Part shown: positions 51,793-55,591 of the stretch, piece after piece
Layout: each line of letters opens with the position of its first letter
How positions within the stretch are numbered: position 1 is the stretch's first letter
Translations under genes and position numbers: made by a program
Notes under the pieces: generated by a model
Told to the model about the DNA's origin: nothing
Databases searched by the model: none
What the model saw: the letters and a program-made list of their open reading frames with translations, nothing else
Assembly (NCBI GenBank): GCA_050178035.1
Contig: JBFXGK010000001.1
Location: 128,679 to 192,678 of the forward strand
Origin: Kiritimatiellia bacterium
Lineage (GTDB): Bacteria > Verrucomicrobiota > Kiritimatiellia > JAKQHR01
Reading direction: 5' to 3'
Length of the DNA: 64,000 nucleotides

Positions 51793-53208
51793 TTATTTTG
51801 CTTTCAAATGTTTGGCAAGGCCCTCGTAGGCCTTTTTGAACGGGTCCATCGGTGCGTTCAGCACGCCCGCGCCCACCTGCCCCACGCCGGGCTCCTTGTG
51901 AGCCACGCCGGTGTCAATGAACGGCAGAATGTTCTTTTCAACCACCTTCACAACATCAATGCCCGTCGGTGTACCGCGGAAGTTCAGGGATGGAATCTGA
52001 TACATGTTGTTTTCCGCCGCCGTGATTTCGTACATCGTCATCGTGTACTGCAGCGCATCCGCCGCGGTTCCGCCCACGAACTGCACAATGGCCGGCGAGG
52101 CTGCGATCGCGAAGCCGCCGAGCCCGCCCGTTTCCGTGATGGCGCTGTCGCCAATGTCGCGCGCAGCGTCGGCCTTGCTGAAGCCGGGGAAATACAGCGC
52201 ATCCGGAACCAGCGCTTCGCCGACATACCACTTCCCTCCGGTGGCGGAAATCTGCACGCCGAAGTCCGTGCCGTTGCGGGCCATGACCGTCGCGACGCTG
52301 CTGTTTTTGATCCCGCGCGCGGCATCCAGCACGCATTTGCTGGCGGGCATGGACAGGTTCAGGAAGAAATGGTCGTTGCTGTGGATGAACTCCAGGACGG
52401 CCGCCGCATCGGTGCGGTTCCCGGTGGTCTTGATGATGGCCGGGGCCAGCAGGCGATAGAGAAGCGAAGTTCCCGCGCGGTTGCGGTTGTGCACTTCGTC
52501 GCCCATGTGCAGGGCCTGCGCGATCAGGTTCTTGAGATCAATGAAGCCAAGCTGTTCAACCGCACGCTGCAGGACCGGATAGAGCACCTTTTCCATCCAG
52601 CGCAGGCGATCAATCACCTCCGGGCTGTAGGCTCCGTAGCGGAGCACCTTGCCGAGTCCCTCGTTCAGCGTGCAGTAGGCCTTGTTGCCAAAGGTCTTGT
52701 TTTCGATGATCCACACCGGCATCGAAGGCGTGACCACGCCCGCCATCGGGCCGACCGCGCAGTGCTCGTGGCAAGGCGCAAATTTCAATTTCCCTGACTT
52801 GGCTAACTTCTCCGCCTCTGCCGGGGTTTTCGCCATGCCCTCATAAAGCAGTCCGCCCATCATTGCGCCGCGCATCGGGCCGCACATGCGGTCCCAGGTG
52901 ATCGGCGGGCCGGAATGCAGGAACAGATTCTTTTTCATTCCGGGGATCACGTCAATCGCGCGCGCAAGGCCCACCACGCGCGGCATGCCGCGCAGGATGA
53001 TGTCCATCGCCTTCTTGTTGGCCTTTTCGATCTGGGCCTTTTTGCCAGCAATGATTCGAACCGCCTCCGGCGAAACATCCACCGGCGGCTTCCACTGCAC
53101 CTGAATGGCGGGCGTCCCGACTTCGTCCAGCGCGGCCTTGAAGGATTCGAGTCCAATATTGACCACTTTAACTTGACTGTTGAAAAGTTCTTTCACGGCC
53201 ATGATCAT
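51793..53208 (-). CDS. DUF1116 domain protein (YlbE-like)
   Basis: 471 aa; near-collinear to E. coli YlbE as I recall it (HSGPP, CHEHCAVGPM, NEGLGKVLRYGAY, FFLNLSMPASK, GIAHKEPGVGQVGAG). Confidence 0.85.
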   Translation of the reverse strand: MIMAVKELFNSQVKVVNIGLESFKAALDEVGTPAIQVQWKPPVDVSPEAVRIIAGKKAQIEKANKKAMDIILRGMPRVVGLARAIDVIPGMKKNLFLHSGPPITWDRMCGPMRGAMMGGLLYEGMAKTPAEAEKLAKSGKLKFAPCHEHCAVGPMAGVVTPSMPVWIIENKTFGNKAYCTLNEGLGKVLRYGAYSPEVIDRLRWMEKVLYPVLQRAVEQLGFIDLKNLIAQALHMGDEVHNRNRAGTSLLYRLLAPAIIKTTGNRTDAAAVLEFIHSNDHFFLNLSMPASKCVLDAARGIKNSSVATVMARNGTDFGVQISATGGKWYVGEALVPDALYFPGFSKADAARDIGDSAITETGGLGGFAIAASPAIVQFVGGTAADALQYTMTMYEITAAENNMYQIPSLNFRGTPTGIDVVKVVEKNILPFIDTGVAHKEPGVGQVGAGVLNAPMDPFKKAYEGLAKHLKAK

Positions 53209-54743
53209 TCTCCCAGTTTTTCAATGATGCTGCCGGCCAGCCTGCAGGCTTCCGCATTGGTCGGCATAACGATTGCGCCCGCCTTGCGCAGGGTTTCCCT
53301 GACCTTGCTCCGGTTCTGCGGATCGCGGGCGGTGCCCGTGATCGAACAGACCACCAGCACTTTTTTGCAGGCCTTTTTAATGACGTCCTGAAGTTCCCCT
53401 GCGGGATCCATGTTGGAACCGTATCCCAGCACCACATCGAGCAGAATGACGGCTGTTTCAGGGTCGCTGGCCTCCTGCAGGATGCGCTGGTTGCGGAGCG
53501 AGAAATCAATCATCGGATGCGGACGGCCCACTGTGAATTCGTCCTCGCCAAGATCAATGACGGTGTTCTTCCGGCTCCTGAGCAGATCCTTTAACTGCTT
53601 CGCGGTTCCGGAAGGCGAATTGGCATACAGCCCGCCCGGCAGCTTCTGGAAAAGAATCTGTGCCTCGGTGCAGAAGGTGCCGCCGCTGAACAGGCCGCGC
53701 AGATATTTCTGCTTGGGCTTGCAGCGGTTCGCGAGCGCCGAGGCCTGCGACCGGATGGCCGCATCATTTGCGGCCAGCTGGCTGTCCACATCCCTGACCT
53801 TTGCGCCGCGCGAAAGCGCCACCGCCTTGAGGGCGGCCTCTTCCAGCGTGACCGCCATCAAAGCATCCTTTGGCTTAGCCCCAAGGAACATTGAGACCAC
53901 CGGCTTGCTGATTTTTGCCGTGATTTTTCCGATCTCGCGCATCACGCTCTCATGCGGCGGCTTTGAAACCAGCAGGATGACCTTCGTCTGCCGGTCTTCC
54001 GCCAGCGCCTTCAACGCCTCGATGAACATGATGCCGCCGATGTCCTTTTTGACATCGCGGCCGCCTGTGCCGATCGCCTGCGATATGCCGCAGCCTTCGT
54101 TGGAAATGATGCAGGTGACTTCCTGGCAGCCCGTGCCGGAAGCGGCCACCACGCCGATGTCGCCACGGTTCACGACATTCGCAAACGCCAGCGGAACGCC
54201 GTTGATGATGGCTGTTCCGCAGTCGGGCCCCATGACCAGCAGGCCTTTCCTGCGGGCAAAGAGTTTCAGCTTCTTCTCATCCTCAATGGAAACATTGTCG
54301 GAAAACAGCATCACATGCAGCCCTTTTTCGAGCGCCTTCATGGCTTCGGCCGCTGCATATCGGCCGGCAATGGAAATGATGGCGAGGTTTGCGTCGGGAA
54401 CTTTCTCCAGCGCGCTGGCAAGGTTCGTGGCGGTGGCCGATGCCTGTCCTCCGGAGGATACCTTCTTGCGGCTTGCCGAAAGCAAATCCTCGGCGGCCTT
54501 CAACGCCGCCTCGGCCGCGGCCTGCGTTTTTGCGCGAATGCCGATCAGCAGGTCTGTATCCGTGGCATTTTTGAACTCGTTCAGCAGAAGCCCCGAATTA
54601 GCCAGGATACTCCTGTTTTCCTTCGTGCCCATCACCACGGCGGCATCCACAACGCCATCGCGGGCGGAAAGTTCACGGCCCACATTCATCAGCGCCACAG
54701 AATCAAAGTAGGCGCCCTTTTTAATCACACCTTTAACCACCAT
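53205..54743 (-). CDS. fdrA: FdrA family protein (CoA-binding, succinyl-CoA synthetase-alpha-like)
   Basis: ORF 53205..54797; start set to ATG at 54743 (MVVKGVIKKGAYFDSVALM); motifs KLPDANLAIISIAG, GLLVMGPDCGTAIINGVPLAFANV, LGEDEFTVGRPHPMID. Confidence 0.85.
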   Translation of the reverse strand: MVVKGVIKKGAYFDSVALMNVGRELSARDGVVDAAVVMGTKENRSILANSGLLLNEFKNATDTDLLIGIRAKTQAAAEAALKAAEDLLSASRKKVSSGGQASATATNLASALEKVPDANLAIISIAGRYAAAEAMKALEKGLHVMLFSDNVSIEDEKKLKLFARRKGLLVMGPDCGTAIINGVPLAFANVVNRGDIGVVAASGTGCQEVTCIISNEGCGISQAIGTGGRDVKKDIGGIMFIEALKALAEDRQTKVILLVSKPPHESVMREIGKITAKISKPVVSMFLGAKPKDALMAVTLEEAALKAVALSRGAKVRDVDSQLAANDAAIRSQASALANRCKPKQKYLRGLFSGGTFCTEAQILFQKLPGGLYANSPSGTAKQLKDLLRSRKNTVIDLGEDEFTVGRPHPMIDFSLRNQRILQEASDPETAVILLDVVLGYGSNMDPAGELQDVIKKACKKVLVVCSITGTARDPQNRSKVRETLRKAGAIVMPTNAEACRLAGSIIEKLGE

Positions 54744-54757
54744 GATACAAACTCCCT

Positions 54758-55591
54758 TCACGGCCCGCGATCCAGCCCCATGTAGAGTCCCGTGCAAAGA
54801 TCGGCGCCTGACGTGGCGCCCACCGCAAAGAGACTGTCCGCGGCATTCGTAATTTCATCCTGCCCTTTGTTGATTAGAGATTCAAGCAGGGATCGCATCA
54901 ATTCATTGACGCGCCCCTCATGCGCCAAACCCAGGAAACTGGCAACCAGCAGCGAGCCGCCCCCGGCATGGCGATATATTTCATCGCGCAAAGGACGGCT
55001 TCTGTCACCGGCCGTGTGAAGGGCAATGAGCAATCCCGCAATGAAATCGTCACCGGACGGCGTCAGGCCCAGGCCGCATCCGTGGAGCTTCTGAATGCCC
55101 TGCTGAACCTGCCCGCTGATCAGCAAGTCCGATCCCAGCTGAAGCTGATCACGCATGGCCGATTCGAATCCCGGACGGAAACTGCCCCGCCGGCCTGAAT
55201 GAAGGAGGAAAGCCATGCTTTTTTCGGGCGCCTGCGCGGTCAGCAGATATTTCAACCACAGGATGTTCGCATTGGGAATGCGCCGCCCCTTGCAGAAGTC
55301 CATTGAGGAATCGTAGACCTGCGCAGTGGAAATGGAGAAGGCGATTCCGTTCACATGGACGGAATCACCTTTCACTTCGAGCGTCTTGACTTTTTCCAGG
55401 TCCAGGCCGTCAAAGACGACGTTTACCGGCCCGGCGCCGATTTCGTGAGCCACCAGCGACACCAGCCGGCCCCGGGACGTAAAATTTGCCGACCGCCGGA
55501 AACGGGCATGCAAAGTGAAGGTGCCCTCCTCCACCCGGTCGCCAACGCTCAGCAGCTTCGGCTTCACAGCATCAGATGTGGCCGAGGGCAA
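54758..55591 (-). CDS. DUF2877 domain protein (YlbF-like)
   Basis: 277 aa; [18 protein letters not shown] motif; positioned immediately upstream of fdrA. Confidence 0.6.

Follow-up and report, generated by a model that had tools for sequence, protein, structure and literature searches.

What does a DUF2877–FdrA–DUF1116 gene trio do in a bacterium when the DNA around it carries no genes of allantoin breakdown? Such a trio lies on the minus strand at positions 51793–55591 of a 64,000-nucleotide stretch from a Kiritimatiellia bacterium (contig JBFXGK010000001.1); this whole stretch is referred to below as the window. A preliminary description of the trio called the three proteins collinear with E. 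coli YlbF, FdrA and YlbE and tentatively named an oxamate carbamoyltransferase of anaerobic allantoin/oxalurate catabolism as the function proposed for the E. coli trio. By their profile matches, the three genes belong to the AllFGH/YahEFG three-subunit family in the broad sense, and we refer to them as allH, allF and allG-like. The module is a lineage-specific rewiring, to the glutamate dehydrogenase gene gdhA, of AllHFG-like genes from a clade found in anaerobes, and it probably serves the recovery of nitrogen from a ureide.

Family assignment and gene structure

The mechanical open reading frames (ORFs) run from 54758 to 55591, from 53205 to 54797 and from 51793 to 53208, as had been given earlier, and their assignment to DUF2877, FdrA and DUF1116 is borne out by profile searches with PF11392, NF004760 and PF06545. 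In Pfam, PF11392 (AllH) is the former DUF2877 and PF06545 (AllG) the former DUF1116. The FdrA model reaches 520 bits (cutoff 433) on 53205–54797, where CoA_binding and Ligase_CoA domains are matched as well, and all three family scores lie far beyond what would be expected by chance. The relatives of known structure are E. coli FdrA (PDB entry 3DMY, 4.7e-90) for AllF and an uncharacterized DUF1116 protein (PDB entry 3CLQ, 8e-131) for AllG; the PDB search gave no relative of AllH. An exact-sequence look-up of the window AllG matched no record.

Translation of allH likely starts at GTG 55567, 5 nt past the gdhA stop codon, rather than at TTG 55591, and a 270-amino-acid allH gene call in contig L167 of a sister species favours this choice. 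The likely start of allF is ATG 54743, which is preceded by GGGAG and gives 512 residues instead of the mechanical 530 from TTG 54797. For allG it is ATG 53208, the start codon overlapping the allF stop as ATGA. The genes are contiguous and share one orientation, with gaps of +14 nt (allH/allF) and −4 nt (allF/allG). Together with gdhA directly upstream, they form one tightly packed four-gene operon, gdhA–allH–allF–allG. All three subunits of the broad family are thus present, side by side and co-oriented.

Relation to E. coli AllFGH and YahEFG

Oxalurate in E. coli derives from the opening of the hydantoin ring of allantoin. Kim & Kim (2024; PMC11326118) purified the FdrA–YlbE–YlbF proteins (AllFGH) and identified them as oxamic transcarbamylase, and the identity given earlier for the E. 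coli trio was therefore correct. The enzyme catalyses the reversible reaction of oxalurate, an N-acylurea, and phosphate to oxamate and carbamoyl phosphate, independently of CoA and of nucleotide (PMC11326118).

The window module shares with AllFGH the three families, the tight gene linkage and the conserved motifs of AllF. The proposed collinearity holds for the families and fails for gene order and size: the window has the order H–F–G with products of about 269, 512 and 471 residues, whereas E. coli has allF–allG–allH with 555, 419 and 271 residues. E. coli AllF ends in an additional C-terminal tail, the counterpart of which lies here at the N-terminus of AllG (residues 13–41). The E. coli genes are in an operon with the carbamate kinase gene allK and adjoin allECD and allB. 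None of these is present in the window, where a tblastn search (E ≤ 1e-3) found no homologue of allA, allB, allC, allD, allE, allK, gcl or glxK. The earlier remark that carbamate kinase and ureidoglycolate genes are missing next to the module can thus be extended to the full 64 kb.

Order and sizes fit yahE–yahF–yahG instead, with an identical H–F–G arrangement and products of 287, 515 and 472 residues. The H subunit aligns with YahE over 260 residues at 24% identity, compared with 33% over only 106 residues, in the C-terminal domain, for E. coli AllH. E. coli has YahI (carbamate-kinase-like) and YahJ (an amidohydrolase) encoded downstream of this trio, whereas homologues of neither were found in the window, and the two modules fall into different clades. 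YahEFG is itself an uncharacterized paralogue and supplies no function that could be transferred.

For the F and G subunits the identities are 41% to AllF and 43% to AllG, 44% to both YahF and YahG, and 47% and 49% to the proteins of Aminobacter plasmid pSR8. A neighbour-joining tree built from 96 full-length AllG domains groups the window protein tightly with its relatives in one clade, set off by a long stem, and places the AllG and YahG proteins of E. coli and that of pSR8 outside it. Because AllFGH and YahEFG lie equally far from the window proteins, which belong to a separate clade, the oxalurate function cannot be carried over by orthology. As judged from subunit grouping, gene order and size, and from the lack of an allK operon and of allB/C/D/E linkage, orthology of the window module with AllFGH in the strict sense is not supported.

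The family as a whole is large. A search with AllG of 1.84 billion representative proteins retrieved 3,346 clusters (50% identity) at E ≤ 1e-3 and 704 at E ≤ 1e-30. Many members are AllF–AllG fusions of about 1,000 residues, and these natural fusions show that F and G act together. A few unusual fusions occur among the representatives P0363–P0388, namely AllG with a ChrR-type cupin (P0376) and AllG with an NmrA-like NAD(P)-binding domain (P0387).

A conserved scaffold related to succinyl-CoA synthetase

The motifs FSDNV, MGPDCGT, ASGTGxQE, GGRD, SKPP and G(R/K)PHPM(I/L)D are common to the window AllF, E. coli AllF, YahF and pSR8 FdrA and are conserved across four deep clades. Across 96 diverse AllG members, conservation reaches 95% or more at 18 residues. 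AllF aligns (2.6e-18) to residues ∼60–245 of the α subunit of succinyl-CoA synthetase (SCS) and has, in MGPDCGT, ASGTGxQE and GGRD, counterparts of the GPNCPG, SGT and GIGGD motifs, which belong to the phosphate and CoA sites of SCS α, a member of the SCS α/ATP-citrate lyase superfamily. Unlike SCS α, it has no GHAG phosphohistidine loop at the aligned position and no ATP-grasp partner, and it carries an additional C-terminal Ligase_CoA domain with the invariant G(R/K)PHPM(I/L)D motif. The invariant histidine of G(R/K)PHPM could take the place of the phosphohistidine loop. From this conserved catalytic scaffold we infer that the window enzyme would belong to the same reaction class as the E. 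coli enzyme, carbamoyl transfer involving phosphate.

A multi-phylum clade with its own conserved gene cluster

Among species-representative genomes and metagenome contigs we collected 160 loci with an AllG that is 64–93% identical to that of the window. They represent Verrucomicrobiota/Kiritimatiellia, Elusimicrobia, Cloacimonadota, Bacteroidota, Lentisphaerae, Ignavibacteriota and others, and this level of AllG conservation across phyla is unusually high. By its AllG and AllF sequences the window module is a member of this clade; its AllG is 64–73% identical to that of members carrying the full conserved cluster described below. For the analysis of gene context our own ORF calls were clustered, representatives were annotated and the genes were recounted by tblastn on 138 non-redundant loci, with each denominator restricted to loci that have enough flanking sequence.

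AllF was found in 112 of 112 related loci and AllH in 70 of 103, the lower count for AllH being due to its fast divergence. A cyclase-family (PF04199) gene lies directly downstream of allG in 85 of 99 loci. The subunits of a molybdenum (Mo) hydroxylase are present in about 74%, with the FAD subunit in 63/85, the 2Fe–2S subunit in 61/83 and the molybdenum-cofactor (MoCo) subunit in 51/69. The cyclase is similar to kynurenine formamidase and isatin hydrolase; the nearest relatives of the MoCo subunit are 4-hydroxybenzoyl-CoA reductase and XdhA. A thiolase (26/76), a DUF35 protein (31/86) and a 250-residue protein that we call c16 (29/71) are encoded directly upstream of allH in about one third of the loci; c16 has no Pfam or NCBIfam match. 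Less frequent are a signature amidase (13/83), a uracil-permease-like NCS2 carrier (11/81), an Elusimicrobia-type CN-hydrolase directly upstream of allH (11/94), a dihydropyrimidinase (7/81) and a type III CoA-transferase (6/83). The flanks of the 160 loci, 2.18 Mb in total, contain no allC, allD or allE.

The same arrangement is seen in Pfam-labelled gene calls of public contigs, where the block AllH–AllF–AllG–Cyclase–FAD–FeS–MoCo–Amidase occurs, and in a Kiritimatiellae genome with the order c16–thiolase–DUF35–AllH–AllF–AllG–Cyclase–Mo hydroxylase. Compared with this cluster, the window has gdhA, an mdcA-like gene and an ω-amidase-like gene in place of the cyclase, Mo hydroxylase, thiolase, DUF35 and c16 genes. 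The cyclase and Mo hydroxylase partners were outside the view of the preliminary description, the observations of which are confirmed and the interpretation of which is supported in part. A literature search for a cluster of FdrA with cyclase or xanthine dehydrogenase found no describing paper, and searches on DUF1116, DUF2877 and yahEFG and on ureidomalonate, barbiturase and malonamate led only to work on E. coli and to one study of nitrifier metagenome-assembled genomes.

Several individual loci deserve mention. In L002, L016, L094, L179 and about 30 other loci, the c16 gene consistently occurs together with genes for an SCP-x-type thiolase and an OB-fold protein of the DUF35 family. In the Kiritimatiellae locus L179 small genes of a selfish or accessory kind break up the conserved cluster: it has a PDDEXK_3 nuclease gene between allF and allG, a VapB/PIN toxin–antitoxin pair after allG and a 23S_rRNA_IVP protein gene inside the Mo hydroxylase genes (insertions at 9573–9983, 11550–12199 and 15903–16316). 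Additional flanking genes in L054, L094 and L013 (ABC-2, UbiA, radical SAM and glycosyltransferase) are unrelated.

Rewiring to gdhA and selection on the module

The wiring to gdhA is restricted to this lineage: gdhA is next to the module in only two of 109 related loci in the tblastn recount. The window gdhA product, an NADP-specific glutamate dehydrogenase (Table 1), also matches the Pfam family ELFV_dehydrog and its N-terminal domain. In a sister Kiritimatiellia species (L085 and L167–L169, from activated-sludge and digester samples; AllG 92–93% identical, 81% nucleotide identity) the arrangement CN-hydrolase←mdcA-like | gdhA→allH→allF→allG is retained exactly, and the gdhA/allH junction recurs in L167–L169. 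All contigs of the sister species (L167–L172/L085) break about 350–430 nt after allG, in several independent samples and assemblers, which suggests a repeat or mobile element about 400 nt downstream of its allG.

The window copy is under purifying selection. Between the window and the sister species, the ratios of nonsynonymous to synonymous substitution rates (dN/dS) are 0.04 for GdhA, 0.33 for AllH, 0.14 for AllF, 0.05 for AllG, 0.06 for the MdcA-like protein and 0.04 for the CN-hydrolase; these values are rough, since synonymous sites are near saturation. AllH is the fastest-evolving subunit, with 66% identity to its counterpart in the sister species. That the module is a decaying, functionless remnant of a broken ancestral cyclase/Mo hydroxylase cluster, to which the lack of the usual partners in the window and the divergence of AllH might point, is most improbable and was rejected: dN/dS values of 0.04–0.33 (0.05–0.33 for the trio) exclude decay, the three ORFs are intact and translationally coupled, the family-wide motifs are kept, and the same gene order recurs in many samples and in two species or more. 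The sequence thus points to a functional member of the clade.

Divergently transcribed from the gdhA operon is a pair of genes for an MdcA-like protein, a candidate CoA-transferase, and a CN-hydrolase. The MdcA model TIGR01110 gives the former a score of 757.7, just below its cutoff of 789. It has no adjoining mdc-type genes, its neighbours being gdhA, the CN-hydrolase gene and a histidine kinase gene; the reference MdcB–H proteins were not searched against the window. The best PDB matches of the CN-hydrolase are yeast Nit3 (PDB entry 1F89), PH0642 and mouse Nit2, and it clusters with the CN-hydrolases that are encoded directly upstream of AllH in Elusimicrobia. The two genes are translationally coupled through an ATGA overlap, and the start codon and ribosome-binding site of the CN-hydrolase gene are visible. 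An mdcA-like gene also lies about 6.8 kb from a full conserved cluster in one further genome (contig_18). Taken together, the association of this pair with the module is moderately supported.

In the Omnitrophota loci L173 and L174 (8001–13971) the pair is also kept, there without the H–F–G trio. Genes for SCS-like β and α subunits and a ketoacyl synthase follow it, and further subunits of malonate decarboxylase are lacking.

The region between gdhA and the mdcA-like gene contains one weak σ70-like match on the plus strand (57020–57049), in a scan that performed at the level of shuffled sequence. A σ54-like site, which would be a sign of nitrogen control, was not matched there, and the pattern is under-represented throughout the window.

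Table 1
Features of the module and its immediate surroundings in the window
Feature	Coordinates	Strand	Evidence
Permease (522 aa), predicted 7+7 (UraA/SLC26) fold	50070..51638	-	AlphaFold2 model and Foldseek
allG/permease spacer (154 bp), phased A-tracts	51639..51792	.	Sequence and Tandem Repeats Finder
allG-like (DUF1116 subunit, 471 aa)	51793..53208	-	Pfam AllG PF06545, 3.6e-98
allF/fdrA-like (512 aa), SCS-α-like CoA_binding + Ligase_CoA scaffold	53205..54743	-	NCBIfam FdrA NF004760
allH-like (DUF2877 subunit, ∼269 aa)	54758..55567	-	Pfam AllH PF11392, 7.6e-21
gdhA, NADP-specific glutamate dehydrogenase (448 aa), operon gene 1 of 4	55572..56918	-	NF006929, 747 bits (cutoff 536)
Divergent intergenic region, gdhA/mdcA-like	56919..57081	.	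Sequence
Solo mdcA-like (539 aa), candidate malonate/dicarboxylate CoA-transferase	57082..58701	+	Pfam Mal_decarbox_Al, 790 bits
CN-hydrolase (273 aa), Nit2/Nit3 ω-amidase-like	58698..59519	+	Pfam CN_hydrolase, 4.2e-49

Parallel systems in other bacteria

In Proteobacteria the trio recurs together with a ring-opening amidohydrolase of the barbiturase/cyanuric acid hydrolase family, a nucleobase or nucleoside transporter and a carbamate kinase. The Aminobacter pSR8 cluster has a BMP-type ABC system as its transporter. In Klebsiella, Citrobacter and Escherichia, IncHI2 plasmids carry the order ring-opening amidohydrolase, NCS2, DUF2877, FdrA, DUF1116, carbamate kinase, and so resemble the window in the H–F–G order and in having a nucleobase transporter nearby. 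These proteobacterial plasmid clusters are the closest annotated relatives of the window module (F 44–47% and G 49% identical). They differ from it in bringing their own ring-opening amidohydrolase and carbamate kinase, the former being present in neither the window nor the clade. Elsewhere, allFGHK adjoins biuret and triuret hydrolase genes in nitrifier genomes (PMC12625717).

A functional analogy exists with the OTC/YgeW transcarbamylases (OTC, ornithine transcarbamylase) and carbamate kinase of reductive urate degradation, where phosphorolysis of a ureido compound yields carbamoyl phosphate (PMC12507026); these enzymes have no sequence relationship to the window module. The theme that the contexts of the trio share is an acyclic ureide, produced when a cyclic ureide is opened by hydrolysis.

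In the IncHI2 plasmid of Klebsiella aerogenes (L182) the carbamate kinase gene after DUF1116, at 9985–10934, aligns in two pieces and is missing from the gene table; it may be frameshifted. Of 182 plasmid records with FdrA homologues, 130 are conjugative; the cluster context was inspected in two. The cluster of ring-opening amidohydrolase, NCS2, DUF2877, FdrA and DUF1116 may thus be widespread on conjugative enterobacterial plasmids.

Proposed function

We consider, with modest confidence, that the window encodes a heteromeric H/F/G complex that transfers a carbamoyl group, cleaves a ureide and feeds nitrogen assimilation, the substrate not being oxalurate by default. An acyclic ureide would give up its carbamoyl group to phosphate on the complex, leaving a carboxylic acid amide, and the ureide itself would come from the hydrolytic ring opening of a nitrogen heterocycle. 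In the clade, the Mo hydroxylase would activate the ring and the cyclase-type hydrolase would open it. In the lineage studied here, the module has parted from these two enzymes and stands behind gdhA in one operon. The ω-amidase-like CN-hydrolase may then deamidate the amide product, the MdcA-like CoA-transferase may activate the resulting dicarboxylate and GdhA may assimilate the ammonia that is released. Because carboxylic acid amides are the expected products, an amidase or CN-hydrolase and a dicarboxylate CoA-transferase fit as neighbours, both in the clade and in the window. The nitrogen-scavenging role suggested earlier remains reasonable and gains some support from the ω-amidase-like neighbour. 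The accompanying caveat that the substrate might be a different one was well founded, given the separate clade and the lack of an allantoin context.

A number of points speak against this proposal. Searches of the window by tblastn with AllK, YahI and ArcC found no carbamate kinase, and none of the transcarbamylases that use carbamoyl phosphate (OTC, aspartate transcarbamylase or YgeW type) is present there. A carbamate kinase occurs in just two of 81 related loci, compared with all proteobacterial clusters examined. With no such enzyme nearby, the fate of the carbamoyl phosphate is unexplained; it might feed biosynthesis, or a carbamate kinase might be encoded elsewhere. The usual cyclase and Mo hydroxylase of the clade are found nowhere in the 64 kb, which leaves the substrate without a local source. 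The proximity of the mdcA-like/CN-hydrolase pair to the module may be coincidental, given that other Kiritimatiellae have the mdcA-like gene on its own and that the Omnitrophota pair stands without the trio. The context counts depend on our own ORF clustering and tblastn thresholds, the AllG tree is a neighbour-joining tree without support values, and no member of the family, the E. coli enzyme included, has a defined active site or catalytic mechanism.

The alternative that survives best is that the module is a bona fide oxamate carbamoyltransferase of anaerobic allantoin/oxalurate catabolism, with the other pathway genes elsewhere in the genome. Its families are those of the only characterized enzyme, two of them named in Pfam after AllFGH, and a neighbour of the amidase type could take on the hydrolysis of oxamate. 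The type III CoA-transferase of the six related loci scores best against the CoA:oxalate CoA-transferase model, if below its cutoff. We nevertheless regard this alternative as unlikely. The identity to AllF and AllG is only 41–43%, YahF and YahG are equally near, and the module belongs to a separate clade and has the yah-like gene order. Neither allB, allC, allD, allE nor allK is found in the 64 kb, nor are allC, allD or allE around the 160 loci, and the CoA-transferase that is present locally is MdcA-like, which points to malonate rather than oxalate.

Malonate also figures in a more specific version of our proposal, which as a whole is speculative and rather improbable: an undescribed multi-phylum anaerobic pathway for the oxidative breakdown of pyrimidine-type heterocycles by way of ureidomalonate phosphorolysis, of which the window would keep the lower half, wired to GdhA. 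The Mo hydroxylase would produce a barbiturate-like cyclic ureide, and the cyclase-family metallohydrolase would open its ring, replacing the barbiturase-type amidohydrolase of the proteobacterial plasmids. The AllHFG-like enzyme would convert ureidomalonate and phosphate to carbamoyl phosphate and malonamate. An ω-amidase-type hydrolase or signature amidase would release ammonia and malonate from the latter, and an MdcA-like or type III CoA-transferase would yield malonyl-CoA.

FdrA has historically been annotated as an acyl-CoA synthetase of the SCS type. A CoA-dependent, SCS-type acyl-CoA synthetase or phosphorylase, working with thiolase/DUF35 and CoA-transferases on an acyl-CoA intermediate rather than a ureide, would agree with the CoA_binding and Ligase_CoA domains and SCS-α-like motifs of AllF, with the thiolase, DUF35 and 250-residue proteins encoded directly upstream of allH in about one third of the loci, and with the CoA-transferases that recur near related loci. 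It is quite improbable all the same, as the purified E. coli enzyme requires neither CoA nor nucleotide, no ATP-grasp subunit accompanies AllF, the GHAG loop is lacking at the aligned position and neither thiolase nor DUF35 is present in the window.

The downstream permease and the remainder of the window

The module was described earlier as lying between gdhA and a purine-type permease gene. The position is correct, and gdhA is co-operonic in this lineage; the permease is no conserved partner of the module. Its gene adjoins allG only in L166, an 87%-identical assembly, in none of 94 related loci and not in the sister species, and an 89%-identical permease of a relative is found in an unrelated gene context. 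As partners conserved in the clade, gdhA and the permease were accordingly rejected (2/109 and 0/94 loci).

The permease has no Pfam match, even at E ≤ 10, and no NCBIfam or PDB sequence match, Xan_ur_permease and TIGR00801 included. Its AlphaFold2 model, built with 38 homologues, has a predicted local distance difference test score (pLDDT) of 86.8 and a predicted template-modelling score (pTM) of 0.84. Foldseek recognizes in this model a 7+7 inverted repeat, with BicA (SLC26), prestin, UraA, UapA and SVCT1 at similar scores; this ‘UraA’ fold is common to NCS2, SLC26 and SLC4 transporters. A BLASTP comparison with E. coli GhxQ gives a weak match (E = 0.003) over residues 243–357, the signature region. 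More than 3,700 homologues are known under pipeline names such as ‘xanthine/uracil/vitamin C permease’, ‘NCS2 family’ and ‘AGZA family’. The earlier label ‘NCS2-type’ is thus plausible from the predicted fold and the GhxQ match, but no family model supports it and the fold would fit SLC26-type anion carriers equally well.

The spacer between allG and the permease gene contains at 51695–51781 a tandem array of AAAAATG-like units with a period of about 10 and 8.5 copies. In L166 (87% nucleotide identity) the phasing of the A-tracts is kept, with the sequence itself diverged. Such a run suggests intrinsically bent DNA. No canonical terminator was found on the minus strand of the spacer, in a scan that performed at the level of shuffled sequence, and the spacer is probably a curved promoter region or a boundary between separate transcription units.

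The window contains no counterpart of the E. coli yge/ygf urate cluster, and thiolase, DUF35 and c16 genes are likewise not found in the 64 kb. The remaining genes are of housekeeping or anaerobe-typical kinds (gatB, panBC, dapA, eno, ptsI, flavodiiron protein, hybrid-cluster protein, gnd and murCDG), with no ureide-related gene among them. Positions 44856–48970 hold a typical anaerobe module for arylacetate/aromatic amino acids, consisting of the α and β subunits of indolepyruvate/2-oxoacid:ferredoxin oxidoreductase (IorAB), a PaaK-like phenylacetate-CoA ligase homologue (619 bits, just below the equivalog cutoff of 646) and an ACT-pair protein; a GDSL hydrolase gene at 49071–50063 adjoins it. 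An insertion-sequence element with a DDE transposase and DUF4372 lies at 7992–9230, where the GC content drops to 0.517 (8001–10000) from about 0.57–0.59 nearby, and a XerC/D-type integrase gene is found at 844–1875.

Implications for the family

The only assayed member of this large and deeply split family is the enzyme of the 2024 study, and Pfam labels every homologue ‘oxamate carbamoyltransferase subunit’. This label will spread to a clade whose gene context is unrelated to allantoin. Tied as it is to a Mo hydroxylase and a cyclase-type hydrolase, the clade probably marks an uncharacterized pathway by which communities of sludge, peat, sediment and rumen process nitrogen heterocycles anaerobically. 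With its substrate established, annotations would be corrected on a large scale, and the cycling of nucleobases and nitrogen under anaerobic conditions would gain a reaction.

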